Source of the DNA: Nitrospirota bacterium
GTDB taxonomy: Bacteria; Nitrospirota; UBA9217
Reading direction: 5' to 3'
DNA length: 64,000 bases
NCBI GenBank assembly: GCA_963796285.1
Contig: CAWCKW010000012.1
Coordinates: forward strand, 1,152,001-1,216,000
The position numbers and the translations under genes were made by a program. This document shows, piece by piece, positions 5,655 to 18,542 of this stretch. How positions within the stretch are numbered: position 1 is the first letter of the stretch; every line of letters begins with the position of its first letter. Below the pieces are notes generated by a model. The model searched no databases. It saw only the letters and a program-made list of their open reading frames with translations, and was not told where the DNA came from.

Positions 5655-8600
5655 TTATCCCCGGGTGCGGAAAATAGCAAGTTTGCCGAACCTCTTCTGG
5701 AACGTATCAAGATACGTATAGACGACGGGCGTTATATACAGGGTCAACAGCTGCGAAAAGAGCAGACCGCCGACCACGGCAAGACCGAGAGGCCGCCGCG
5801 CCTCTGCGCCCGCGCCCAGGCCGAGCGCAATGGGGAGCGTGCCCATCAGGGCCGCCATCGAGGTCATCATGATCGGACGGAACCTGACAAGGGCCCCTTC
5901 GAAGATCGCTTCCTCGGGTTTTTTCCCTTCCTTCCGTTCCGCTTCAAGAGCGAAGTCGATCATCATGATGGCGTTCTTTTTCACGATCCCGATAAGCATG
6001 ATAACGCCCACATACCCGTAAATATTGAGCTCCATGCCGAAAGCCATGAGGGTCAGCAGCGCCCCCACGCCCGCGGCAGGCAGTCCCGAGAGGATCGTGA
6101 GCGGATGGATAAAGCTCTCGTACAGGACGCCGAGGACGATGTAGATGACCAGGACGGCCAGGATCAGGAGAAGGAACAGGCCCTGCGTGGACGACTGGTA
6201 CGCCTGGGCCGTGCCCTGGAAACTGGTCGTGATGGACTGCGGCAGCGTCTGCCGGGCGACCTTATCCACGTCCCCGACGGCTTCACTCAGGGAAACCCCC
6301 GGCCTCAGGTTAAAGGAAAGGGTCACCGCGGGGAGCTGACCGAGATGATTGATGAGGAGCGGACCCGTGCCCACGGTCGGCTTGGTAACGACATTGAGCG
6401 GTACTAATTTGCCGGACGAAGATCGGATATACAGCATGGTCAGCGAGGACGGGTCCGCCTGGTACCGGGGTTCCAGCTCCATGATGACCTGGTACTGGTT
6501 GGTCGGCGCCAGGATGGTTGAGATCTGCTGCGAGCTGTACGCCGCGCTGAGCGCGCTTTCGATCTGCTGCGCCGTGACGCCGAGCGCCGCTGCCTTGTCG
6601 CGGTCTATCTCGAGGTTCACCTGCGGGTTTTTTATCAGCAGATCGGTATTCACGTCCTGGAGCTGCGGCAACGCCCGAAGTTTCGCTTCGAGGATCGGGG
6701 CCGATTTATACAGCTCGTCCGTGTCCGGGCCCTGGAGCGTATACTGGTACTGGCTCTTCGTAAGCACGCCGCCGATGCGGATGGGAGGCAGGTTCTGCAT
6801 GAAGATCCTGATGCCGATGACGCCCGCGGTCTTTCTGCGCAACTGCTGGATGATCTGGTCGGCGGAAAGTTTACGCTCTGCACGGGGCTTCAACCTCATG
6901 AAGATCCGGCCGGAGTTGGCAGCCGCGTTCGGTCCGCCCGCGCCGATGCTCGACATGAAGGCCTCCACATTCTCGTCCTGGGCGATGATGTCCGCCAGTT
7001 CCAGTTGGTGTTTTCTCATGTCGGCAAAGGAGATCCCCTGCTGAGCCTCGGTAATGGCGAAGACCTGGCCCGTGTCCTCGGTCGGGAGAAAGCCTTTCGG
7101 TATGATATAGAAGAGCGCGAACGTCACGGGAAGAAGCAGAAGGGAGATCATCAGCGTGACAAAGCGGTGTTTGAGCACCCACGTGAGGCTCCTCTCATAG
7201 CTTTTCCGCAGGCGATCGAAGAATCGCTCCAGGACCATGTAGAACCGGCCGTGCCGCTCTTGTCCGGGAGGCCGCAGAAACCGGCTGCAGAGCATGGGGG
7301 TCAGCGTAAGGGACACCACGCCCGAAACAAGGATCGCCACGGTGATCACGACCGCGAATTCATGCAGCAGGCGTCCGAGGATGCCTCCCATGAAGAGCAC
7401 GGGGATGAAGACCGCGACCAGTGAGAACGTCATGGACAGGATCGTAAAACCGATCTCCTGCGACCCCTTGAGCGAGGCCTCAAGCACGGGTTCCCCGTGT
7501 TCCATGTGCCGGACGATGTTCTCGAGCATCACGATGGCGTCGTCGACCACGAACCCCACGGCAAGGATCATCGCCATGAGCGAAAGGTTGTCCACGCTGT
7601 AGCCGAGCACGTACATGGCCGAGAACGTACCGATGATCGACATGGGGAGCGCCAGGCTCGGGATGATCGTGGCCGAGAGGTTGCGTAAAAAAAGGAAGAT
7701 GACGAATACGACGAGCACGATCGCGAGCATCAGGGTCAACTTGACATCGCCGACGGATTCACGTATGGACGTGGATCGGTCGAAGAGAATATCCAGACTG
7801 ACCGATGCGGGAATCACCTCTCGGAACGTCGGCAACAGCTTCTTAATGGAATCCACGACCTCGACCGTGTTGGTGCCGGGCTGACGCTGAATGGCCAGGA
7901 TGACCGCCCTGGTCTTTGCTTTGGACGTATTGTACCAGCTTGCGACCTTATCGTTTTCCACGCTGTCGATGACCCTGCCGAGTTCCACGAGCCGGACGGG
8001 ATTGCCGTTGCGGTATGCCACAATGAGGGGGCGGTATGCCTCTGCATCCATGAGCTGGCCGCCCGTTTGTATGGTGAACGACTTCGTTGCCCCTTGCAGG
8101 GTCCCGGTCGGCAGGTTCACGTTCCCGTTCGCAACCGCGTTCGCCACTTCGTCGATGCCTATTCCGCGGGAGGCGAGGGCGTGGGGATCGAGCTGGGCGC
8201 GGACCGCGTACTTCTGGGAGCCGAATACCTGCACCTGGGCCACGCCGCTTATCATTGAAATGCGCTGGGCCATGGTGGTCTCGGCGTATTCGTCCACGGC
8301 TGCGAGCGGCAGTGTGGGAGAACTGAGCGCAAGATAGATGATCGGCTGGTCCGCGGGATTGACCTTCTGGTAGGTCGGGGGCGTCGGCATGTCCGGCGGG
8401 AGCAGGCGCGCGGCCTTGGCGATCATGGCCTGGACGTCCTGGGCCGCGGCATCGATGTTCCGGCTGAGGTTGAATTGGAGGTTGATCTGAGTAGAACCGA
8501 GCGCGCTCACCGACGTCATGTTATCGAGGCCGGCGATGGTGGAGAACTGGCGCTCGAGCGGCGTTGCCACGGCAGAGGCCATTGTCTCCGGGCTGGCGCC

Positions 8601-8756
8601 GGGCAGCGTGGCGTTCACGACGATGTTCGGGAAATCCACATTCGGCAGATCGCTCACGGGCAGCAGACGGTATGCCATGATGCCGAAGAGAAGGATCGCG
8701 CCCATGATCAGGGTCGTCATGACCGGTCTTCGTATAAAGGGTTCTGCGATGTTCAT
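5655..8756 (-). CDS. RND efflux permease, MdtB/MdtC (AcrB family)
   Basis: 1033 aa. FIRRPVMTTL, GFVVDDAIVMLENI, GIVKKNAIMMIDFA, RFRPIMMT. Confidence 0.96.
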   Translation of the reverse strand: MNIAEPFIRRPVMTTLIMGAILLFGIMAYRLLPVSDLPNVDFPNIVVNATLPGASPETMASAVATPLERQFSTIAGLDNMTSVSALGSTQINLQFNLSRNIDAAAQDVQAMIAKAARLLPPDMPTPPTYQKVNPADQPIIYLALSSPTLPLAAVDEYAETTMAQRISMISGVAQVQVFGSQKYAVRAQLDPHALASRGIGIDEVANAVANGNVNLPTGTLQGATKSFTIQTGGQLMDAEAYRPLIVAYRNGNPVRLVELGRVIDSVENDKVASWYNTSKAKTRAVILAIQRQPGTNTVEVVDSIKKLLPTFREVIPASVSLDILFDRSTSIRESVGDVKLTLMLAIVLVVFVIFLFLRNLSATIIPSLALPMSIIGTFSAMYVLGYSVDNLSLMAMILAVGFVVDDAIVMLENIVRHMEHGEPVLEASLKGSQEIGFTILSMTFSLVAVFIPVLFMGGILGRLLHEFAVVITVAILVSGVVSLTLTPMLCSRFLRPPGQERHGRFYMVLERFFDRLRKSYERSLTWVLKHRFVTLMISLLLLPVTFALFYIIPKGFLPTEDTGQVFAITEAQQGISFADMRKHQLELADIIAQDENVEAFMSSIGAGGPNAAANSGRIFMRLKPRAERKLSADQIIQQLRRKTAGVIGIRIFMQNLPPIRIGGVLTKSQYQYTLQGPDTDELYKSAPILEAKLRALPQLQDVNTDLLIKNPQVNLEIDRDKAAALGVTAQQIESALSAAYSSQQISTILAPTNQYQVIMELEPRYQADPSSLTMLYIRSSSGKLVPLNVVTKPTVGTGPLLINHLGQLPAVTLSFNLRPGVSLSEAVGDVDKVARQTLPQSITTSFQGTAQAYQSSTQGLFLLLILAVLVIYIVLGVLYESFIHPLTILSGLPAAGVGALLTLMAFGMELNIYGYVGVIMLIGIVKKNAIMMIDFALEAERKEGKKPEEAIFEGALVRFRPIMMTSMAALMGTLPIALGLGAGAEARRPLGLAVVGGLLFSQLLTLYITPVVYTYLDTFQKRFGKLAIFRTRG

Positions 8757-8769
8757 TCGGATAGTCCTT

Positions 8770-8898
8770 GATGATCCCGTAAAAAGTCGGTTATTACCGC
8801 AGAGACGCGGAGGGCGCGAAGAAAACTTATTGAATCATTTTTAATTTCTCTGCGTCTCAGCGCCTCTGCGGTGGATTCAGACTTCGTACAAATGCATC
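8770..8898. repeat. nested REP-like palindromic element
   Basis: Outer arms GATGATCCCGTAAAAAGTC / GACTTCGTACAAATGCATC enclose ACCGCAGAGACGCGGAG...CTCAGCGCCTCTGCGGT (8796-8872). Confidence 0.7.
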
Positions 8899-8969
8899 TT
8901 TCTTAAGTTTATAAATAAGAACGCGAGACGACGATCTTCGTAATTCAACAACAATGACACGGCTGTCGG

Positions 8970-10178
8970 TTACTTTTCATTGCCAGCTTTTTGTTTTTTA
9001 TCCGATTGGCCGGTGCTTGCCTGATCGCTTCCAGTCTGCCCGCTTTTTACCGGGGGTGTTTGCGGTTGCTCCTCTTTCAACTCCACACGGACCCCGGTGA
9101 TCAGGTTGAGCTGTCCGTCGGTCACGACTTTTTCTCCCGGCGTCACGCCTTGAGCGACCACGGCGATATCACCGGACGTCCGTGCGATTGTCACCGGCCG
9201 GGACTCGACCGTATTGTCCGGTTTTACCACAAAGACATACTGACCCTGCTGCCCTGCTTGAAGGGCCGCAGCCGGCATGACAACAGCGTTCCGTTGGGTC
9301 GTGAGCGTCAGGACCACATTGATGAACTGTCCCGGCCAGAGCCTTTTGTCCTTGTTCTCGAAGGTGCCTTTCAGCTGGATGGTCCCGGTGGCGGCGTCCA
9401 CGGCATTATTAATAAACGTAAGCTTTCCCTGAACGGGCCGTTTCTCGTCTCCGGGAATAACAGCATCCACCTGCAAGGATCCTTCAGCCATATATTTTTT
9501 AATATTCGCGAGGTTCTGTTCCGGCAAAGAGAAGGTCACATAGATCGGGACGATCTTATTGATCGTGACCATGGTCAGATCGTTCGCTTTAATGACATTG
9601 CCCTTGTTGATAAGGACGCTTCCGACGCGTCCGTCGATCGGAGATTTGATCGTGCAATAGGCAAGCTGCAGCCTGCCGTTCTCGACATTCGCTTTGTCCG
9701 CCTGGACCACGGCCGCCAGGGCGTCCGCAGCTGAGCGAAACTGGTCATATTGGTCCTTGGAGACATAGTCTTTCTGAACAAGGATCTCGTATCTCTTGGC
9801 CTGCTCTTCCGAATTCTTCGCCTGTGCAACATCGCGCGCGAGCTGCGCCTCGGCCTGCTTGAGGGCCGCCTCGTAGGGTCGAGGATCGATCTGGAAGAGC
9901 ACGTCGCCCTGCTGGACATCCTGACCTTCCTTGAATTGCACGCCGATGATCTCCCCGTTGACCAGGGCTTTCACGGATACGGCATTGTACGCCTCGACAT
10001 TGCCGATGGCATTGATCTGCACCGGGATGTTCTGTTGCATCACATCGCCTATTTTTACCGGTACGGCCGGCTTCGCCGCTTGTTTCGCCCTGCCGTCGTT
10101 GGAACAGGCGCTGATGATGAGAAAGAGCGCGACCGGAACGATCAGTTTCGCGCCCGCATGAACAGGTTTAAGCTTCAT
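8970..10178 (-). CDS. RND periplasmic adaptor, MdtA-like lipoprotein
   Basis: ISAC lipobox, FQIDPRPY, SPIDGRVG, LWPGQFINV. Confidence 0.93.
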   Translation of the reverse strand: MKLKPVHAGAKLIVPVALFLIISACSNDGRAKQAAKPAVPVKIGDVMQQNIPVQINAIGNVEAYNAVSVKALVNGEIIGVQFKEGQDVQQGDVLFQIDPRPYEAALKQAEAQLARDVAQAKNSEEQAKRYEILVQKDYVSKDQYDQFRSAADALAAVVQADKANVENGRLQLAYCTIKSPIDGRVGSVLINKGNVIKANDLTMVTINKIVPIYVTFSLPEQNLANIKKYMAEGSLQVDAVIPGDEKRPVQGKLTFINNAVDAATGTIQLKGTFENKDKRLWPGQFINVVLTLTTQRNAVVMPAAALQAGQQGQYVFVVKPDNTVESRPVTIARTSGDIAVVAQGVTPGEKVVTDGQLNLITGVRVELKEEQPQTPPVKSGQTGSDQASTGQSDKKQKAGNEK

Positions 10179-10285
10179 TATCTTTCGCTGCCTCTCTTTA
10201 TTGATTTACACATCCGGTTATGGAGCAATGCCAGGTACCCCTGGCGGTTAGAGCAACACATTGCCTTCTGCCTGACGTTACCCGG

Positions 10286-11665
10286 TTACCGCGCCCCCAT
10301 TGCTTTCTCGATGGTCGCCTGGTCGATCTTGTAATTGGACAAGGCGCTGGTATAGTTCGCCTGTGCGGCAACATAGGTGGCGAAGGCGTCCGAAACCTCG
10401 ATGGGGCTTCCCACTCCGGCGGAGTATCTGCCGTTTGCCAGGTCCAGGTTCTCCTTTGCCTGCGCGGATGCCAGTTCGGCGGTTGCAATGCTGGCCTCTG
10501 CCGCCTGCAGGTTCAGGTATGCCTGTTGAATATCGAGTTGTATCTGTTGTCTGAGTGACTCTTCGTTTGCCTTCAGTATATAAAAGCTTGACCTTGCCTC
10601 CGCCGCTTGATGAACGGTCAAAAATCCGCTGAACAGGGGTACGGTCAGGAGCACACCGGCATTCCAGCTGTGGTCTAAGTTCGATGTCGTCTCGCCTGCC
10701 CAGTTGTAGTTTGCGAACCCCGATAAGACCGGGTAATAGCCGGACCGTGCCAAACCGATATTTGCCTCCGCGGCCTGCCTTTTCGAGATGATCGACTTCA
10801 GGTCGGGCCTGTTCTCGAAGGCACGCGCCTTTGCCTCTTCCAGGGTTATCGCGAAGTGCTGGAATGAGAGGTTGTCCTCAATGGCATACTCAGGCGCATC
10901 CGGGGTCCCCATGATATTGTTAAGGGTCACCCAGGCCAAGTTAAGCGCGTTCTCGGCATTGATGAGGCTCAGTTTTGCATTACTCAGGTCCACTTCCGCT
11001 TTGATGACGTCGATCCTCGCCTTTGTTCCGACATCATAAAAACCTTTTGCCTGATCGAGGTGCAGTTGAAATTGTTTCAGGACGTCCGCGGCAACATCCC
11101 GGTCCCTCCTGGCCTTCAAGACGCCATAATAGGCCTGCTTTACGCTCAGGATGATAGTATCCTGCGTTGTGGTCAGATCTGAACGGGCAGACTCGAGGTT
11201 ATATTTCGAAATGTCGACCTGCTGAAAGGTCTTCCCGAAATCAAAAATGTTCTGGTTGAGGGTAATGCTGCTCGTATACTGGTCGTACGCCGCCGAGCTG
11301 CCGAAGGTGCTCGTCTGGGATGACAGGGGGTCTATTCTGGTATACGCTCCCGACGCACTGAGCTGCGGGTAGTAGTTTGAACGGGCTTCCCCTACCCTGC
11401 TCTGATTGACGTCAACGCCATATATCGATGCAAGGACGGTCGGATTTTTATTGAGCGCGGTCTCGATGCACTGGTTCAGGGTGAGGAGGGGGACCGGTTT
11501 TGCCGCTCCTGCCGCGGCTATTTCCTGTTCATTGGTCTGTCCCTGGACCGTTGCACCCTCACCGATCGGCTCCGCTTCGGCCGCTGACAGGCGCATGAGC
11601 GTCGTCAGCGACAACAATGACAGGATAGACAGCGCACTCACGATAGCTTTGCATTTTCTGTTCAT
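10286..11665 (-). CDS. TolC-family outer membrane channel
   Basis: Signal peptide and two OEP repeats (RSNYYPQLS, RSGYYPVLS, RYSAGVG). Confidence 0.92.
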   Translation of the reverse strand: MNRKCKAIVSALSILSLLSLTTLMRLSAAEAEPIGEGATVQGQTNEQEIAAAGAAKPVPLLTLNQCIETALNKNPTVLASIYGVDVNQSRVGEARSNYYPQLSASGAYTRIDPLSSQTSTFGSSAAYDQYTSSITLNQNIFDFGKTFQQVDISKYNLESARSDLTTTQDTIILSVKQAYYGVLKARRDRDVAADVLKQFQLHLDQAKGFYDVGTKARIDVIKAEVDLSNAKLSLINAENALNLAWVTLNNIMGTPDAPEYAIEDNLSFQHFAITLEEAKARAFENRPDLKSIISKRQAAEANIGLARSGYYPVLSGFANYNWAGETTSNLDHSWNAGVLLTVPLFSGFLTVHQAAEARSSFYILKANEESLRQQIQLDIQQAYLNLQAAEASIATAELASAQAKENLDLANGRYSAGVGSPIEVSDAFATYVAAQANYTSALSNYKIDQATIEKAMGAR

Positions 11666-11753
11666 AGTGATTCCCCCGGATTACTGGTTAGTGTCCTCTA
11701 TGGGACACAGGATTGCGGAATTGGTTCAATCCACTGGAAAGAAAAAAGATTCC

Positions 11754-12347
11754 CTACTCGTTTTTCATTGTGCCGAACATGAATATATCCACGAACTCTT
11801 TGATGTTCTTTTCCATTGTTTGTTTTTTCATACCGCCTGCCCGCATGATCTCCTCGGAGCGGAAGTAAGAGAACAGCATGCCCAAAAACATCTGGGCCGC
11901 CATCTCCGGAGATATGGTCCGGAGAAGGCCCTTTTTCTGCAGTCCCCTGAAGTAGGATGCGAGGGTCAAACGGAGATCATCGGCGAACTTGTTATAGAGT
12001 TTCTTGATCTTCTCAGGATAGATCGTTCCTTCCGAGTACATGATCTTGACCATTGACTTGCGTTCTTTCAGCGACAGCAAAAATCTGGATGCGATCTGCC
12101 TGAGCGAATCCCCATAGGAAAGACCGTCCAACTCCGGCAACAGTTCCTTCAGCCTCGGCAAAAAGGTGTGGTTCCTCAAAAGCGCTTCAAAAAGCTTTTC
12201 CTTGGTCCCGAAATGCCGGAACAGGGTCAACTCGGTGACCCCCGCTTCCTGGGCGATCTCCCGCGTCGTGGACCCGAGATAGCCTTTTTCCGAGATCAAT
12301 TTGAGCGTTGCGTCCAGCAGCCTCTGTTCTGTTGTGTTTTTCTTCAT
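11754..12347 (-). CDS. TetR/AcrR-family regulator
   Basis: [30 protein letters not shown]. First gene of the efflux operon. Confidence 0.95.
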
Positions 12348-12348
12348 A

Positions 12349-12394
12349 AATGTAAGCAGGCACTTACATTACATCAGAACCGGAGGAAAGTCAA
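12349..12394 (-). promoter_or_regulatory. efflux operon promoter with overlapping palindromic TetR operator
   Basis: Minus strand TTGACT-17-TAATGT. Perfect inverted repeat AATGTAAG-6-CTTACATT (12349-12370) overlaps the -10 and start region. Confidence 0.75.
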
Positions 12395-12422
12395 GCGTCC
12401 GCCTTGATCCGGCATTTTTCCC

Positions 12423-12451
12423 TTGCATGGTTCACGGTCTTGTGGTATCGT
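12423..12451 (+). promoter_or_regulatory. sigma70-like promoter of rpmB
   Basis: TTGCAT-17-TATCGT with extended TG. Confidence 0.5.
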
Positions 12452-12493
12452 ATGCCTGCTTTTAATAACTTGCAGGTAATGGAGGACTTTACA

Positions 12494-12688
12494 GTGGCGG
12501 GTACGTGTGATATTTGCGGAAAGGGCAAGCTCAGCGGAAACAAAGTGAGCCATGCCAATAACAGATCCAAGAAGTTTTCAAAGCCGAATTTGCAACCGAT
12601 CAGGGCAGAGGCGGCCAATGGTTCGCATGTGCGCATGCATGTCTGTACGCGGTGCATTCGATCGGGCAAAGTAAAGAAAGTAAGCTAG
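12494..12688 (+). CDS. rpmB: 50S ribosomal protein L28 (Zn-ribbon form)
   Basis: GGAGG SD then GTG start. CDICGK...GNKVSHANN...PNLQ...CTRCIRSGK. Confidence 0.95.
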
Positions 12689-12708
12689 CTTCCAATTATC
12701 TTCAACGC

Positions 12709-12739
12709 AATCCCCTGCTTCAATTGAAGCAGGGGATTA
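12709..12739 (+). terminator. hairpin terminator after rpmB
   Basis: AATCCCCTGCTTCAATTGAAGCAGGGGATT inverted repeat. Confidence 0.75.
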
Positions 12740-12912
12740 TTAATCCCTGAACTACTCTCCAGCAACTCACATCATCGTCAAATAATATTGAGCCGGTGAA
12801 GATGCCCTATCCTTAGATCATATCCAATAATACACTGTTATTCCTTATTTTTTTACAAACAGATACTATTAAAATTGCAATAAATAAAATATGTTAAATT
12901 ATGATTTTTAGG

Positions 12913-12941
12913 TTGACACTAATCGAACCTGGGACTATATT
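12913..12941 (+). promoter_or_regulatory. near-consensus sigma70 promoter of the beta-propeller gene
   Basis: TTGACA-17-TATATT preceded by a very AT-rich UP-like region. Confidence 0.7.
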
Positions 12942-13148
12942 ATTATTCTTAGGAATAAAATGGTATTTGAATTTTAGTATTATTAAACAAGGCATCTCAC
13001 GTCAGACACTAGCTCCCGTACTCTTTTTTAAGGGACAAGGAGGTGAATACTCAGAGATTAGATGATAATTAAGGATGCGATAACAATAATCTGTATGTTT
13101 CACCTGAGCACCTAAGTGCTCGGAACTATTTAACATGGGAGGGATCAG

Positions 13149-14235
13149 ATGAAAAAGATTCTGGTGATCAGTTTGGTAGTGATGAGTGCTTTTGGGCTCT
13201 TCCTGGGCCTGTCACAGAGCGCAGTGGTGGAGGCAGCAGATGTTAGTGTTGTTACTGTGAAAGTAGTGCCGGCAGCCAAAATACCGACCTTTGACGCGAC
13301 GGCCTATATCGCCGGCCATGGCGGTCACATCGCGATCATCAATATGAAGACCATGAAGCCCCCGATGGACGTGGAAAAGGACCGGATCGTCCTTTCCGAG
13401 GCCGGTTCCGAGATGGAAGGCAAGATCGCGGGCATGAGCTTTGAAGAAGTGAAGAAGGCCGGCGGGACCCACGGCCAGTCCATCGTCACCGAAAAAGGCA
13501 AGAAGATCCTTGTTGCCGGAACACTGGCGGGAAACATATACAAGATAGACCTGGCAACAATGAAGAAGGAAGGCCCCTTCAAGGTCGGCGAGAAGTTCTG
13601 CGGCGCGATCGCAGGACCCGATGGAAACATATACTTCGAGGATATGGCGGACGGAAATGTCTATGTCTGGGATGCAAAGACGCTGAAAACCGTTGACAAG
13701 ATGCCGGTGGGCAAGGCGGTGTGCGGTATCCAGTGGACCAAGAACGGCAAGAAGGCCTATATTTCCGACATGCCGCAGGGTATCGTCTTTGTGTATGATT
13801 GGAAGACGAAAAAAGAGATCAAACAGATCACGAGCCCCGAGATGACATTCCTCCATCAGATCAGAATGACAGCCGGACGGCAAATACCTCTGGGTCAGCG
13901 CCCCGAACGAATTTGATCCGGGTCTCAAGCCGGGCACGCACAAGAGCCAGGTCATCATAATCGATACGAAAACTGACACGATCGTCAAGCGCCTCGTCCT
14001 TCCCGATGATGTGCGGCCGCATGATTTTGCATTTACCCCGGACGGCAAGTATGCGTTCCTTTCATCAAGGACCTATGGTGACGACAGCACGCTGAACGTC
14101 ATGGACATGAAGAACTACGATCTCGTTGGCAAAGTGTCCGCCTGCGCCGGCTGCCACAAGGCGAATGGCGTAGAAGTCAAGATCGACAAGGGTTCTCCGC
14201 TCCTCTGCGGCATCGAAGTCGACTGGCATAAGTAG
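13149..14235 (+). CDS. secreted YncE/YVTN-like beta-propeller protein with one CxxCH heme-c motif (frameshift near 13872)
   Basis: Signal peptide and repeats such as TPDGKY and WTKNGKKAY. Removing one base joins ORFs 13149..13916 and 14011..14235 (RMTPDGKYLWVSAPNE...). C-terminal CAGCH. Confidence 0.85.
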
Positions 14236-14266
14236 ACCGACCTGTAGTCCGTCAAGTTCGGTATCG

Positions 14267-14303
14267 GCCGGAGGCATGTTTCACCTGCCTCCGGCTTCTT
14301 CTT
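14267..14303 (+). terminator. intrinsic terminator
   Basis: GCCGGAGGCA-loop-TGCCTCCGGC followed by TTCTTCTTT. Confidence 0.8.
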
Positions 14304-14353
14304 TCCCTATTCCATAAAACCGCCGACGCATTTACAATCTGCTTGCATACTTG

Positions 14354-14409
14354 TTGTCTAATTAGGTTGTCTCTAATTAGTTTACTGCCTGCTCATCTTC
14401 TGGTATAAT
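14354..14409 (+). promoter_or_regulatory. promoter of the ABC/NosL operon with upstream repeated palindrome
   Basis: TTTACT-17-TATAAT with extended TG. CTAATTAG occurs twice (14358-14365, 14373-14380). Confidence 0.55.
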
Positions 14410-14459
14410 AAGTATGAATCGTTACTAAATCCACTATGAAGGAATAATCGTCTCTCGCT

Positions 14460-15659
14460 ATGAACATTCCTTATGTTGCTCTGAAAAATCTCAGAAGAAA
14501 ACTGACCCGGACGTGGCTTTTATTTTCCATTGTCGCGGTCGTATCCTGCACCCTCTTCTCGGCCACGCTCTTTCTGAAAAGCATCAATAATGCCCTGAGG
14601 ATCGGTACGTATCGCCTCGGCGCCGATATCCTGGTCGTTCCCGAGAGCGCGGAGGACAAGGCGAAATGCGCGCTGCTTTCCGGCGAGCCTACCCAATTCC
14701 TGATGGACAGGTCCGTTCTCGACCGGGTCAAGGCCATCGAAGGCATCAAGAGCGCAACACCCCAGCTTGTTCATCAAACCGACCAGCTTTACCTGCTGCT
14801 TCAATGTGGACGTGTTCCTCGTGGCCTTCGATCCCGACACCGATTTCACGGTCAAACCCTGGCTTGAAAAGAACCTCAACCGGAAGCTCGGCATCAATGA
14901 GATCATCACCGGCAGGAACGTCCCGGTGATCGTAGGAGACAAGATCCCCTTTTTCGGCACAACTTTCACGGTTGCAGGGACCATGGAAGCGACGGGGATG
15001 GATTTCTTCGACCGTGCCGTCTTCATGAGCCTCGACTGCAGCGTACAAGATGGCGGAAAATTCAAAAACCAAGGCGATCCAGCCCATAGAGATCGGCAGG
15101 GACCAGATATCCACCGTCCTCGTACAGGTAAAAGATGACATTACCCCGGACCGCGTCGCAATCCGGATCGAACATGACATCAGCGGTGTCAAGGCGCTGG
15201 TTTCGGACACCATCATCAGCACGGTGCGGAAACAGCTTTCCGGCCTTATCAAAGCGATCTTGATCATCAGCATCATCCTCTGGTTCATCGTCCTCCTGAT
15301 CATGGCGTTTGCCTTTTATATGATCGTGAACGAACGCCGCAGGGAGATCGGCATCTTGCGCGCTATGGGAGCGAACAGGGGGCATATAGCCGCCATTATA
15401 CTGAACGAAGCCACGTTCTGCTTTCGGCCACGGGCGGCGCGGTGGGGATCGTCCTCGGATACGTGTTGCTCATCAGTTTCAAGAACCTGATGCTCCACTA
15501 CCTCAAACTCCCCTATCTCTTCCCCGCCACGCCGGAGTTGATCCTGCTGACTGTCGGAGCGCTCATTGTTTCCATCGTCACCGGCCTCATTGCCGCGTTC
15601 CTGCCGTCATCGCGCTCCTGAAAGTGGAGCCCTACGAAGCGATCAGGAGCGCGGAATGA
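14460..15659 (+). CDS. MacB/FtsX-family ABC permease with periplasmic Cys-Cys motif (several frameshifts)
   Basis: ALKNLRRK, RLGADILVVP, SFTCCFN, VNERRREIGILRAMGA, EPYEAIRSAE across frames. Confidence 0.85.
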
Positions 15660-16255
15660 AGCCCATTATTTTCATCCTTTTCATGACGTCCTTTCTGTTC
15701 TTCTCCTGCACTAAAAACAAGGAGGAGGCGACTCCTCCTGTCGACACGGAAAAGAACCTTTTCGAGGAACTCAAGGACCAGACCGTCAAGAATCCCAAGG
15801 ATGCAGAGGCATGGTACCATCTCTCAGATCTCTATGAACGCTCAGAGGCATATACAGCGAAGAGGTGAATGCCCTTCAAAAGGTCATTGCCATCGACCCG
15901 CAGCGTGGATACGCCTACGTGAAACTGGGGAATGCGTACAGCAGGCTAGGACAATATCAGGAGGGCCTTACCAGTTACCGGAAGGCGATCAAGTTCTTTC
16001 CCAAGAATCCCGTGCTCTATAACAACATGGCGATTGCCTACGGCAAGCTCGGTAAAACAGACGAAGAGATACGTGACCCTTAAAAAAGCCATCGCCCTGC
16101 GGCCGCACTACTCAACCGCCAGGTACAATCTCGGCTTTGCGCTGCTCAAAAAGGGGAAACGTGCCCAAGCGCTCAACCAATACCATGAACTCGATAAATT
16201 TGACGCGGGGGTTGCAGCAGCCCTCAAAAAAGAGATCGACGAAACGGGAAAATAA
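15656..16255 (+). CDS. TPR-repeat lipoprotein (frameshifted)
   Basis: MKPIIFILFMTSFLFFSC lipobox. TPR motifs AEAWYHL, AYVKLGNAY, LYNNMAIAY, ARYNLGFAL. Confidence 0.85.
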
Positions 16256-16256
16256 G

Positions 16257-16668
16257 ATGATACGACGATTGCTGTTCACGGGAATAGCCCTGGCGCTCAT
16301 CCGTGATGTCCCTGACGCCTGCTCGTTGCAGAGGACATCAGATGTACTGAATGCGGTATGATGGTCCAGATGGATTCAAAATTCACTTCAAAGATCACCC
16401 AGGGAGAGACGACCCTCTATTTCTGCGATATCGGGGACCTGTTCACATATCTGAAGAAGACATAATATGAAAGAGGCCAGGGCCGCGGTCAAGGATTACA
16501 CGACCGGGGAATGGATCGATGCCCGCAAGGCGTACTTATGTCAATACAAAACGAAATTCAGGACACCCATGGGCATGGGGCATTGCCGCATTTAAGGACA
16601 AGAAGCGAGGCCTCGAAAGCCGGCAGCAATACTGGATTTCGACGCGAACGGCAAAGGCATTGAAATGA
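16257..16668 (+). CDS. nosL: NosL-family periplasmic copper chaperone (multiple frameshifts)
   Basis: Manual translation: signal peptide, CTECGM, YFCDIGDLF, VKDYTTGEWIDARKAY, TPMG, AAFKDK. Confidence 0.8.
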
Positions 16669-17074
16669 GGAAGCTTGATCGCGATCACGGCGCTCGCAGG
16701 CGGGATCCTTTTTTGCTGGTGCCTCAGGTACATTCTTCCTGCCTGCGAATATGTAGGGTTTCCCGCGCATGCACTGTTCTGATACGGCCCAGGCGGAATG
16801 GGTGGTCGGCACAGTGCTGATCGTGGTTTCCTGCATCGACCTTCTTCATGAAATCGGCAAAAGATGCCGCTGGCCGGTGCCATTCTATCATTCTCGTGTT
16901 CGGCTCGCTTACTGGCTTCCGGACAAATATCGGGTATTGCCAGAGCCCGCGGATGCCCTGTCATTACGGCATGGTGCCTGGGGTCAGGTTTATCGCCGTC
17001 CTCGGCATCCTGATCATGATCGGCGCGGTTTTCAGCATCGCAAAGGATCATACGGAAAGAAAGGAAAATCATGA
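16665..17074 (+). CDS. DUF4418-like Cys/Met/His membrane protein (frameshifted)
   Basis: ILPACEYVGFPRMHC and IGYCQSPRMPCH motifs between hydrophobic helices. ATG overlaps the nosL stop. Confidence 0.7.
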
Positions 17075-17772
17075 TCGAACTGAAAGGATTATCGAAAACC
17101 TACACAATATCCGGGAAAAGCATCAAGGCGGTCCAGCCGATGATCTTACGCATCCAGCAGGGAGAATTCGTCTCCATCGTCGGACACTCAGGAAGCGGCA
17201 AGAGCACCTTTCTGAGCCTTATCGGCGGCATTGCGCGGCCCGACACCGGCACGGTCACCATCGATGGAACGAATATCTGGAACATACAACGATCAGGAAC
17301 TGTTCAAAGCTCAGGAACGAGAAGTTCGGTTTCGTGTACCAGTTCGCGAGCCTTATCCCGACGCTGACCGCGATGGAGAATGTTCTCCTCCCTACGGTGT
17401 TCGGCGGAAAGAAGATCAACGGACGATGCGGTACGGCTGCTCAAGCTCGTGGGACTCGGCGAAAAAACCGACCGGTATCCGTCCGAGCTCTGCGGAGGCG
17501 AGCAGCAGCGCGTTGCGATCGCCCGCGCCTTCATCCATGACCCGGAGATCATTCTTGCGGACGAGCCCACGGGGGACCTAGACGAGGAGACGGAAGCGGA
17601 GATCATGGCGTTTTTCGAAAAGATCAATAAAGAGAAGAAGGTTACCATGATCATGGTGACCCACAGCTCCGAAATCGCGCTCCGCGCCGGCACGCGATAC
17701 CGCATGAAACAGGGCGTTCTTGATACAGCTGAATTGAAACCATCTCGATCATCCAATTCAATGAATGCGTAA
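17071..17772 (+). CDS. LolD/MacB-type ABC ATP-binding protein (frameshifted)
   Basis: GHSGSGKST, FGFVYQF, GGEQQRVAIARAF, ILADEPTGDLD. Confidence 0.9.
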
Positions 17773-17811
17773 CGAACAACGGCGGCCTTGCGGGCCGCCG
17801 TTGTTCGTTAC
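17769..17811. terminator. bidirectional hairpin between convergent operons
   Basis: 19-bp perfect stem GTAACGAACAACGGCGGCC / GGCCGCCGTTGTTCGTTAC. Confidence 0.8.
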
Positions 17812-17834
17812 CTGAACTCTATCGTCGTTGTCAG

Positions 17835-18542
17835 CTATTTCTTCTTCTTATCTCCGAACAGATAATCGTACTCCGCCGGATGATGGTGTTTGAGCTGCTC
17901 GGTCGTCATTTTCCCGGTGATCCACATCCAGTTCATCGGGAACACCTCGGAACGCAGGTGCTCATTGTAGAAATGGAAAATGAGGATGAACACGATGGCA
18001 AGAAGCGCCTCGTCACTGTGCATGGCGAAGACGACGTCCCAGATCCACCCGAGTGTAAATGTCGGGAACAAGTAAGACACCGTCACCGGGAATGCTAGGA
18101 AAAAACCGGATGCCCCGATGATGAACATGCCCCAATACACAGCCCAGTAGTCGAACTTCTGCATATAGCTGAATTTGCCGAAATAGGGTTTTTCCTTCCT
18201 GATGCCGAAGAAATACATGAAATTATGGAACGCATCCACCACGTCCTTGGGCATGGGAACGAGGGTAAGCCTGAACCCTCCCTTGCGCGCCTGGTTCACG
18301 AGGTAGAACTGGTGGTAGATGAAATCGAGCAGCATCGTGATGCCCGCCACCCGGTGAATGATCCCCGCCATCTTCGCGCCGCCCCAGAAACTGATCCAGG
18401 CGCTTGCCGGGTCCTGGTACGCGTACTTGAGCCCCCAACCGGTAAAGGACAGGAGCAAGAAGGTCGTGAACATGATGACGTGCTGGATCCTTGCCGAGAG
18501 GTCGAACCTCTCTATCTCCTTGGGTATATCCTGACTATTCAT
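17835..18542 (-). CDS. membrane di-heme cytochrome b (FdnI/CbcL C-terminal type)
   Basis: RIQH, IHRVAG, KFSYMQKFDYWAVYWG, HSDEALLA, FHFYNEH, HHPAEY. Start MNSQD overlaps the upstream gene. Confidence 0.88.
   Translation of the reverse strand: MNSQDIPKEIERFDLSARIQHVIMFTTFLLLSFTGWGLKYAYQDPASAWISFWGGAKMAGIIHRVAGITMLLDFIYHQFYLVNQARKGGFRLTLVPMPKDVVDAFHNFMYFFGIRKEKPYFGKFSYMQKFDYWAVYWGMFIIGASGFFLAFPVTVSYLFPTFTLGWIWDVVFAMHSDEALLAIVFILIFHFYNEHLRSEVFPMNWMWITGKMTTEQLKHHHPAEYDYLFGDKKKK

Follow-up and report, generated by a model that had tools for sequence, protein, structure and literature searches.

A putative haem c propeller protein with a conserved His/Cys ring, and its accompanying transport genes, in a Nitrospirota genome

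The propeller-cytochrome gene

The window analysed here, 64,000 nucleotides of a Nitrospirota bacterium (assembly GCA_963796285.1, contig CAWCKW010000012.1, positions 1,152,001 to 1,216,000 of the forward strand), carries at 13149-14235 a gene for a predicted exported beta-propeller with one CxxCH haem c motif, followed by genes for an ATP-binding cassette (ABC) system and associated proteins. The original prediction, made from the letters of the window, had proposed that the blades of this propeller begin with His or Cys and that these residues form a metal site in the pore, in the manner of the histidines that bind the CuZ cluster of the nitrous oxide (N2O) reductase NosZ. The span measures 1087 nt, which is not divisible by 3, and holds no single open reading frame (ORF; translation table 11). 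Frame 1, beginning with the ATG at 13149, stays open for 255 aa until a stop at 13916; for its 3' part, 13873 up to the stop codon at 14233-14235, the gene uses the next frame. The frame shift, missed at first, is caused by one extra base near 13869-13872 (ATG ACA G CCG GAC).

A four-letter step at this site gives a 361-aa read-through product that matches an intact 361-aa database protein (P0001) at 97% identity along its entire length, and the residue numbers below are those of this product. All of the motifs listed in the original prediction are found in it: GHGGH at 56-60, THG at 107-109, FCG at 150-152, VCG at 191-193, LHQ at 235-237, PHD at 290-292, CAGCH at 332-336, and LCG at 352-354. 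The N terminus, read by eye, is an export signal without a twin arginine, the CxxCH is present in 245 of 245 aligned family members, and the genome holds PF01578 cytochrome maturation genes. These are the features of a c-type cytochrome, and we regard the CxxCH, beyond which the protein ends after 25 residues, as a putative covalent haem c site. The features of the gene are listed below; L004 is a 90%-identical relative with an intact operon that served as the reference for indel mapping, and L-NosZ is the lactonase-type (clade III) NosZ discussed further on.

13149..13871, plus strand: 5' part of the propeller-cytochrome gene, residues 1-241
13149-13235, plus strand: Sec-type (general secretory) signal peptide, residues 1-29, by eye; cut predicted after VEA (A-x-A type)
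13317..13328, plus strand: H57-G-G-H60, turn that joins strands B and C in the closing blade
13470..13472, plus strand: H108 codon, opens the innermost strand of blade 2
13599..13601, plus strand: C151 codon, opens the innermost strand of blade 3
13722..13724, plus strand: C192 codon, opens the innermost strand of blade 4
13854..13856, plus strand: H236 codon, opens the innermost strand of blade 5; aligns with L-NosZ 'IHH' and NosZ H178
13869..13872, plus strand: +1 frameshift site, one base more than all relatives; extra base at 13869 against L004
13873..14235, plus strand: 3' part of the propeller-cytochrome gene in the next frame, residues 242-361 and stop
14020..14022, plus strand: H291 codon, opens the innermost strand of blade 6; aligns with L-NosZ 'NPHG' and NosZ H326
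14143..14157, plus strand: C332-A-G-C335-H336, haem c attachment motif, in helix 333-339
14206..14208, plus strand: C353 codon, opens the final strand (innermost in the closing blade)

Predicted fold

An AlphaFold2 model of P0001, computed from a 41-sequence alignment, had a mean pLDDT (predicted local distance difference test) of 90.8 and a pTM (predicted template modelling score) of 0.87. Its strands form six four-stranded blades, with first strands beginning at residues 107, 150, 191, ~236, 289, and 352, and the final strand (352-359) closes the ring with the N-terminal strands 50-56, 60-65, and 79-81. In this secondary structure the six ring residues each open the innermost strand of one blade. 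GHGGH is not a blade start and forms the turn between strands 2 and 3 of the closing blade, while CAGCH sits in helix 333-339, within the 21 residues that link the last outer strand (324-330) with the final strand.

Using an all-against-all structural aligner, the top global match was the six-bladed YWTD propeller of nidogen (1npe; Z 25.2, rmsd [root mean square deviation] 2.8, 253 residues aligned), and the other six-bladed top matches included LRP4, NHL and Kelch domains, PAL (3fw0; Z 21.9), and several SMP-30-type lactonases. NosZ (2iwf) scored Z 19.2 with an rmsd of 4.3. The six-bladed class was visible with this aligner but not with Foldseek, which returned from the PDB generic seven-bladed WD40/YVTN matches with TM (template modelling) scores of ~0.5 and high rmsd. 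The strand boundaries and the six-bladed matches both agree with the blade starts that had been read from the sequence.

In the usual propeller topology, the central tunnel has its mouth lined by the residues that open the innermost strands, and the B-C turns lie on that same face. From the model we infer that C353, H108, C151, C192, H236, and H291, in blade order, surround the tunnel mouth, with H57/H60, M166, and M208 as a probable second shell on the same face. The CxxCH-bearing link and a conserved 25-residue loop (82-106) would both cross this ring face.

Conservation of the His/Cys ring

We aligned 245 family sequences with 33-97% identity to P0001, leaving out short fragments and generic YVTN proteins. 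The full pattern of H57, H60, H108, C151, C192, H236, H291, C332, C335, H336, and C353 was found in 230 of them, and the ring is essentially invariant, which supports the original prediction. C192, H236, C332, C335, H336, and R307 were each present in 245/245, C151 and H291 in 244/245, C353 in 243/245, and H108 in 239/245; in what would be the second shell, H60 was kept in 244/245, H57 in 235/245, and the 'DM' pairs D165-M166 and D207-M208 in 243-244/245. Conservation extends to all five cysteines in the mature protein. Judged from this alignment, the ring pattern is far beyond chance.

The sole exception at C151 is His, in an outlier (P0146) that also has Thr for H291 and Ser for C353 and retains the CxxCH. 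A remote clade at 22-28% identity, encoded beside the same ABC genes, retains H60, H108, C151, H291, the CxxCH, and C353, and its residue at the C192 position is probably His (blade start 'FHG'). The original prediction had allowed that the cysteines might instead form disulfides. Because of these Cys-to-His swaps and the odd number (three) of ring cysteines, metal ligands fit better than disulfides, but one disulfide may still be compatible with both.

Family membership and distribution

At E <= 1e-3, 1365 relatives came up in a word-indexed search; among the best 120 clusters, identity was 75-97% and length 334-408 aa. An exhaustive search of 50%-identity representatives gave 8328 proteins at E <= 1e-3 and 24 at E <= 1e-30; beyond a few clusters at 34-67% identity, the remaining matches were generic YVTN-repeat proteins. 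With nine divergent members as queries, a second search recovered a sister clade that includes magnetotactic Nitrospirota. The relatives carry source names such as 'YncE family', 'hypothetical', and 'cytochrome D1 domain-containing', and the ESM Atlas offered automatic names only.

Among curated models, only the generic YVTN repeat (TIGR02276; 34.7 bits against a cut-off of 27.85, in 2 stretches) and Pfam Cytochrom_D1 (PF02239; 42.6 bits against 25.5, for the read-through protein) passed their thresholds. The best Cytochrom_D1 stretch covers ~130 of 368 model positions and therefore indicates kinship of the repeat, not a d1-haem domain. The highest NCBIfam score was that of L-NosZ (NF052460), at 58.4 bits far below the cut-off of 700, and membership of L-NosZ was rejected. 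PQQ_ABC_repeats (TIGR03866, 49 bits against 287) and YncE (NF052280, 25 against 400) failed likewise, and the hydrazine synthase beta model reached 39 bits against a cut-off of 560.

The propeller occurs in 38 of 201 sampled Nitrospirota genomes, in a patchy pattern: 20 of 44 genomes in the family to which the window's genome belongs, 10 of 12 in clade f3, and 3 of 3 in clade f18. Record titles place it also in Deltaproteobacteria, Anaeromyxobacter, and Myxococcales metagenome-assembled genomes (MAGs). Some members, such as P0126, P0332, and P0343 (479-499 aa), have an additional cytochrome c domain (PF13442) within the loop that corresponds to 82-106, over the ring face. One protein of 2470 aa (P0128) contains a whole propeller domain at residues 1491-1824, with 43% identity. 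Our full-text searches yielded no paper that describes such a protein or operon; L-NosZ was reportedly defined by He et al. 2025 (Nature 646:152), whose candidates may include the family. On present sequence evidence, these appear to be an undescribed family of exported six-bladed haem propeller proteins with a His/Cys ring.

Comparison with NosZ and other propellers

Profile-profile comparison with four L-NosZ sequences from Nitrospirota genomes gave a match of 97% probability over 128 columns, which pairs H236 with the initial His of the L-NosZ 'IHH' and H291 with the His of 'NPHG'. The L-NosZ profile in turn aligns these two histidines with H178 and H326 of Pseudomonas stutzeri NosZ chains, which we take to be equivalents of CuZ ligands. 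Because of these two alignments, the ring appears to use the same within-blade position as the CuZ ligands, in keeping with the NosZ-like placement first proposed, although an equivalent CuZ-ligand position was found for H236 and H291 only. CuZ itself is described as bound by seven propeller histidines, H79, H80, H128, H270, H325, H376, and H437 as numbered there (PMC13685413). Compared directly with NosZ chains, the family profile reached only E ~4e-7 over one or two blades, for example residues 91-202 of 1qni against query residues 199-305.

With NosZ of clades I and II and its NosL and NosDFY proteins, the family has in common a periplasmic propeller, hub residues that open the innermost strands, a separate electron-entry cofactor, and a NosL-family chaperone and an ABC system encoded alongside (NosL at 16 of 51 loci, and broken in the window). 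Membership of NosZ nonetheless fails on several counts. The propeller has six blades, not seven, and a ring of three His and three Cys, not seven His. A single CxxCH haem site replaces the CuA cupredoxin domain, with no cupredoxin family detected in Pfam or NCBIfam scans. The ABC system is of the MacB/FtsX type, with an FtsX/MacB_PCD permease and a LolD-like ATPase, and no NosD-like ORF was found in the operons examined. L-NosZ is closer in that it is the top NCBIfam model, is also found in Nitrospirota, and has blade-start histidines that align, but it is ~580 aa long with a CuA motif. No L-NosZ was found in the window's genome, and the 12 Nitrospirota genomes with an L-NosZ-model match at E <= 1e-30 include none of the propeller genomes (201 sampled).

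The best sequence matches among solved structures were 1l0q (E 3e-30), 5c2v_B (2e-17), and 6rtd_A (5e-12). Hydrazine synthase beta, cytochrome cd1 with NirN and NirF, and the YVTN S-layer protein 1l0q share the YVTN-type repeat but have seven or eight blades and lack the His/Cys ring; in 1l0q, a non-metal propeller, the ring-equivalent positions align with M, Q, L, K, S, and A. PAL (3fw0), SMP-30/gluconolactonase-type lactonases, and DFPase, which bind a catalytic metal in the central tunnel, are six-bladed and among the best fold matches (Z 20-22), but they show no sequence kinship, carry no haem, and have O/N donors or His as ligands, not Cys. Thiocyanate dehydrogenase is linked by sequence solely through a weak partial match of residues 262-334 to 8q9x_A (E 2e-6), a Tat-signal (twin-arginine translocation) protein that is presumably of this kind. 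We take thiocyanate dehydrogenase to be a trinuclear copper propeller enzyme whose copper ligands are not cysteines. In a published description it has a copper centre in the propeller hub, a cytochrome c partner, and a sulphur compound as substrate (PMC9456337).

The operon and its variants

Related loci with at least 3.5 kb of downstream sequence numbered 51. In 47 of them the propeller gene is followed on the same strand by genes for a permease (~400 aa), a tetratricopeptide repeat (TPR) lipoprotein (~210 aa), and an ATPase (~225 aa). Of the four exceptions (L031, L037, L053, and L054), three represent a second copy in a MAG whose other copy is accompanied by the ABC genes. NosL lies inside the operon at 16 of the 51 loci and the membrane protein DUF4418 at 15, with scores of 38-77 bits against PF05573 (cut-off 24) and 65-82 bits against PF14387 (cut-off 27), respectively. 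The window carries all five genes in broken form.

14460..15659, plus strand: MacB/FtsX-type ABC permease gene, in five frame segments; assigned by Pfam on the intact homologue of locus L019
14794-14799, plus strand: codons of the invariant CC pair in the periplasmic domain of the permease
15656..16255, plus strand: TPR lipoprotein gene, with at least 2 frameshifts
16257..16668, plus strand: NosL-family gene, in pieces in three or more frames; C-x2-C-G-M motif present
16669..17074, plus strand: DUF4418-family membrane protein gene, in pieces in three frames; limits approximate
17071..17772, plus strand: LolD-like ABC ATPase gene, with 2 frameshifts

The Cys-Cys pair of the permease (alignment columns C112-C113) is invariant in 40 of 40 sequences and may be a metal or sulphur relay site. 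The 812-bp stretch at 16256-17067 was considered as an insertion or mobile element and rejected as such; it is unique in the genome and holds the broken NosL and DUF4418 genes.

Among the 201 Nitrospirota genomes, DUF4418 was found in 31 and the propeller in 38, with both in 22; 20 of these 22 have them on the same contig, no more than 4 kb apart. The 16 propeller-only genomes include that of the window, whose DUF4418 is broken. Of the nine DUF4418-only genomes, three have remote CxxCH propellers beside DUF4418 (L109, L110, and L112), one has the 3' end of a propeller gene at a contig edge, and two (L113 and L114) carry the ABC module with no propeller next to it. These counts overstate the independence of the association because the genomes are kin. 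NosL was encoded elsewhere in 5 of 5 genomes without NosL or DUF4418 in the operon.

Other neighbours are limited to particular clades. A YeeE/YedE gene (PF04143, 182-240 bits) lies directly upstream of the propeller in clade f3 and at L096, L064, and L112, the loci including L093, L094, L096-L102, L108, L064, and L112. It was found at 10 of 16 loci in a second set versus 1 of 66 in the main clade, and was thus rejected as a general neighbour of the main clade. The only YeeE/YedE copy of the window's genome lies elsewhere (C3:135490-136458). In clade f18 a TlpA/AhpC-like thioredoxin gene adjoins the propeller. The window's genome also has a second, intact NosL-family gene (locus L092, contig C12, 929738-933079) beside genes that we labelled by eye from their ORFs as a TlpA-like thioredoxin lipoprotein and CopC-like; this looks like a separate copper-handling cluster.

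A candidate haem c-copper enzyme and its alternatives

The reading that we consider best, at about even odds, is that the propeller works in the periplasm as a haem c-copper enzyme and has a dedicated set of genes for inserting the metal, copper being the inferred one. What speaks for it is an invariant Cys/His/Met set that would lie on one face, at CuZ-like positions and with the haem on the same face, together with export through Sec and, among the operon's products, a copper chaperone, a Cys-rich membrane protein, and an ABC transporter that has a periplasmic Cys-Cys pair. NosL is described as the Cu(I) chaperone for CuZ assembly (PMC6530538; PMC8457098), and an account of the NosZ pathway has it passing copper on to a periplasmic relay tied to an ABC transporter (PMC13685413). 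The original prediction had left the mixed ring open to either a Cu-S or an Fe-type site. The copper side of that proposal gains from the frequent presence of NosL (PF05573) in the operon and from the CuZ-like positions, while the iron side is disfavoured by the Sec signal, the c haem, and the copper chaperone.

Under a copper reading, the gene product would be a Sec-exported six-bladed YVTN-type beta-propeller of ~330 residues carrying one covalent haem c. The ring C353/H108/C151/C192/H236/H291 and the second shell H57/H60, M166, and M208 would form a metal site in the hub, where the metal would most likely be copper, as one or several ions, and the haem, on a long loop over the ring face, would pass electrons to or from this site. 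The downstream genes would probably load the metal in the periplasm, as NosL and NosDFY do for NosZ. The loading set would comprise the MacB-type permease with its Cys-Cys pair, the ATPase, and the TPR lipoprotein, joined in many genomes by NosL and the Cys-rich DUF4418 protein. Our best guess for the substrate is a small inorganic sulphur or nitrogen compound. The link to YeeE/YedE and the lifestyle of the hosts suggest sulphur chemistry or a supply of cofactor sulphur, and by analogy with NosZ, N2O stays a candidate.

A more specific version is offered tentatively: that the hub houses a new multinuclear copper-thiolate or copper-sulphide cluster, fed by haem c, assembled via NosL, the MacB-type ABC system, DUF4418 and, in some hosts, YeeE/YedE, and acting on a small S or N compound, possibly N2O.

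Several observations weigh against a dedicated copper enzyme. About two thirds of the loci have neither NosL nor DUF4418 in the operon. Two genomes of the family to which the window belongs carry a permease-NosL-DUF4418-ATPase module with no propeller adjoining (L113, 4703-7483; L114, 6253-8952), and these genomes yielded only weak partial propeller matches elsewhere; the module is thus not strictly dedicated to the propeller. H236 is Phe in the remote clade at 22-28% identity, and the scores against named families are far below the curated cut-offs.

The free-standing modules at L113 and L114 would be explained if the system handled copper and the propeller catalysed nothing: the ABC system, NosL, and DUF4418 would then export or buffer copper in the periplasm of anaerobes, with the propeller as a Cu(I)-binding or Cu-redox partner. 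The second NosL gene of the window's genome, beside its thioredoxin-like and CopC-like neighbours, is in line with this, as is a propeller ligand set rich in Cys, His, and Met, since such sets are typical of Cu(I) carriers. We nevertheless consider copper handling unlikely. The strong sequence constraint among the best 120 clusters (75-97%) and the haem site suit catalysis or electron transfer better, one clade couples the propeller with the YeeE/YedE sulphur transporter, and the operon ORFs examined include no membrane-fusion or outer-membrane partner.

It is similarly improbable that the haem is the sole redox centre, in a haem enzyme or an electron carrier, with the ring as a structural element (a zinc plug, or a disulfide and a free thiol), a source of the sixth haem ligand, or a substrate channel. 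The CxxCH is invariant, the operon is complete without NosL at most loci, a sulphur transporter adjoins the propeller in one clade, and His/Cys-ligated c haems are known in the sulphur enzymes TsdA and SoxAX. Yet at least six invariant ligand-type residues, one per blade, with a Met/His second shell, exceed what a haem ligand or a disulfide would need, and the Cys-to-His swaps at ring positions, the positional match to CuZ ligands, and the link to NosL also speak against it. An iron-sulphur or other iron cluster in the ring, for which the mixed Cys/His ligation of Rieske-type clusters is a precedent, is very improbable because the Sec signal lacks a twin arginine (by eye), whereas Fe-S proteins bound for export as a rule fold in the cytoplasm and leave through Tat, and because a c haem is attached in the periplasm and the neighbouring chaperone is of the copper type.

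Copper enzymes with their site in a propeller hub are few, and the textbook example is NosZ, which is also the sole biological sink known for N2O. The family would keep the design logic of NosZ, namely a hub site, a separate electron-entry cofactor, NosL, and an ABC system, while departing from it in having six blades, Cys/His/Met ligands, a haem for CuA, and another class of ABC system. According to a 2026 review, the Cu-S cluster of NosZ is unique to that enzyme (PMC13685413); a Cu-S cluster in this propeller hub, if present, would make the protein the second enzyme with such a cluster. If it is a copper enzyme, it would be a candidate enzyme for a still unassigned sulphur- or nitrogen-cycle step in anoxic soils, its operon would be a second, independent system for inserting copper (perhaps also sulphur) into periplasmic enzymes, and DUF4418 would gain its first functional context. 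Should the multinuclear-cluster version hold, the hosts would be anaerobic sulphur-cycling Nitrospirota and Desulfobacterota of soils and sediments, and assembly through NosL, the MacB-type ABC system, and DUF4418 (with YeeE/YedE in some) would be a previously unrecognised periplasmic route.

Frameshifts across the operon

Relative to the intact operon of L004, at least nine frameshifting indels lie between 13869 and ~17425; of these the permease gene has four, the TPR gene at least two, and the ATPase gene two. NosL and DUF4418 are each split over three frames, with further indels there, and all six operon genes (13149-17772) are hit by indels of 1-2 bases. The number of these lesions would be explained if the whole operon, including the window's copy of the propeller gene, were truly decaying into pseudogenes, and so would their confinement to the operon, given ordinary long ORFs in the remaining ~59 kb of the window and no second propeller copy in the window's genome. 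We find this doubtful, although it is to be taken seriously. Inside each frame segment, identity to L004 is still 76-94% with zero in-frame stops. The indels are mostly insertions, lie outside homopolymers, and resemble two alleles written in succession, for example ACAG where relatives have ACT or ACG. Intact propeller copies are present in three other genomes of the same genus. Close-strain contigs from three other public runs (X1, X2, and X5), one of them an RNA library, leave out the base at 13872; stretches that such contigs do not cover carry no information.

A cytochrome c assembly gene (PF01578) elsewhere in the same assembly (C13:588535-589088) was likewise matched as two overlapping pieces and may hold another frameshift. 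Many of the relatives are long-read MAGs, and the nearest of them (L003) is fragmented throughout. Because segment identity is kept without in-frame stops, the indels look allele-like, and long-read MAGs are common among the relatives, the frameshifts are probably a mixed-strain consensus error of the assembly. Among the public sequencing runs found, the top share of sampled window words was 0.08, and the source reads were not among them.

Transcription signals and upstream genes

Three sites around the propeller gene resemble transcription signals.

12913..12941, plus strand: promoter-like site TTGACA-17-TATATT, 11/12 consensus positions, by consensus match only; ~208 nt before the start codon
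14266..14296, plus strand: terminator-like GC-rich hairpin followed by UUCUUCUUU, with a U-rich tail, just past the stop codon; -23 kcal/mol, z -4.6
14381..14409, plus strand: second promoter-like site, TTTACT-17-TATAAT with TG, 10/12 positions, ahead of the permease gene

The hairpin after the propeller gene and the promoter-like site before the permease gene suggest that the propeller gene may be transcribed apart from the accessory genes. The hairpin was absent from the list of the consensus scan. Contigs of a sediment RNA library cover 13000-14235 in eight listed pieces, a weak hint in the same direction because these contigs come from relatives and may contain DNA. No Rfam match was found in the window at 12000-18500 at E up to 0.1.

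Upstream and divergent, on the minus strand at 5655-12347, lie ORFs of 1033, 402, 459, and 197 aa, which we labelled by eye as a resistance-nodulation-division (RND) pump, an adaptor, a TolC-like channel, and a TetR-type regulator. Neither any of these four ORFs nor the gene for ribosomal protein L28 is conserved beside the operon at other loci; the latter occupies 12404-12688, between these ORFs and the first promoter-like site.

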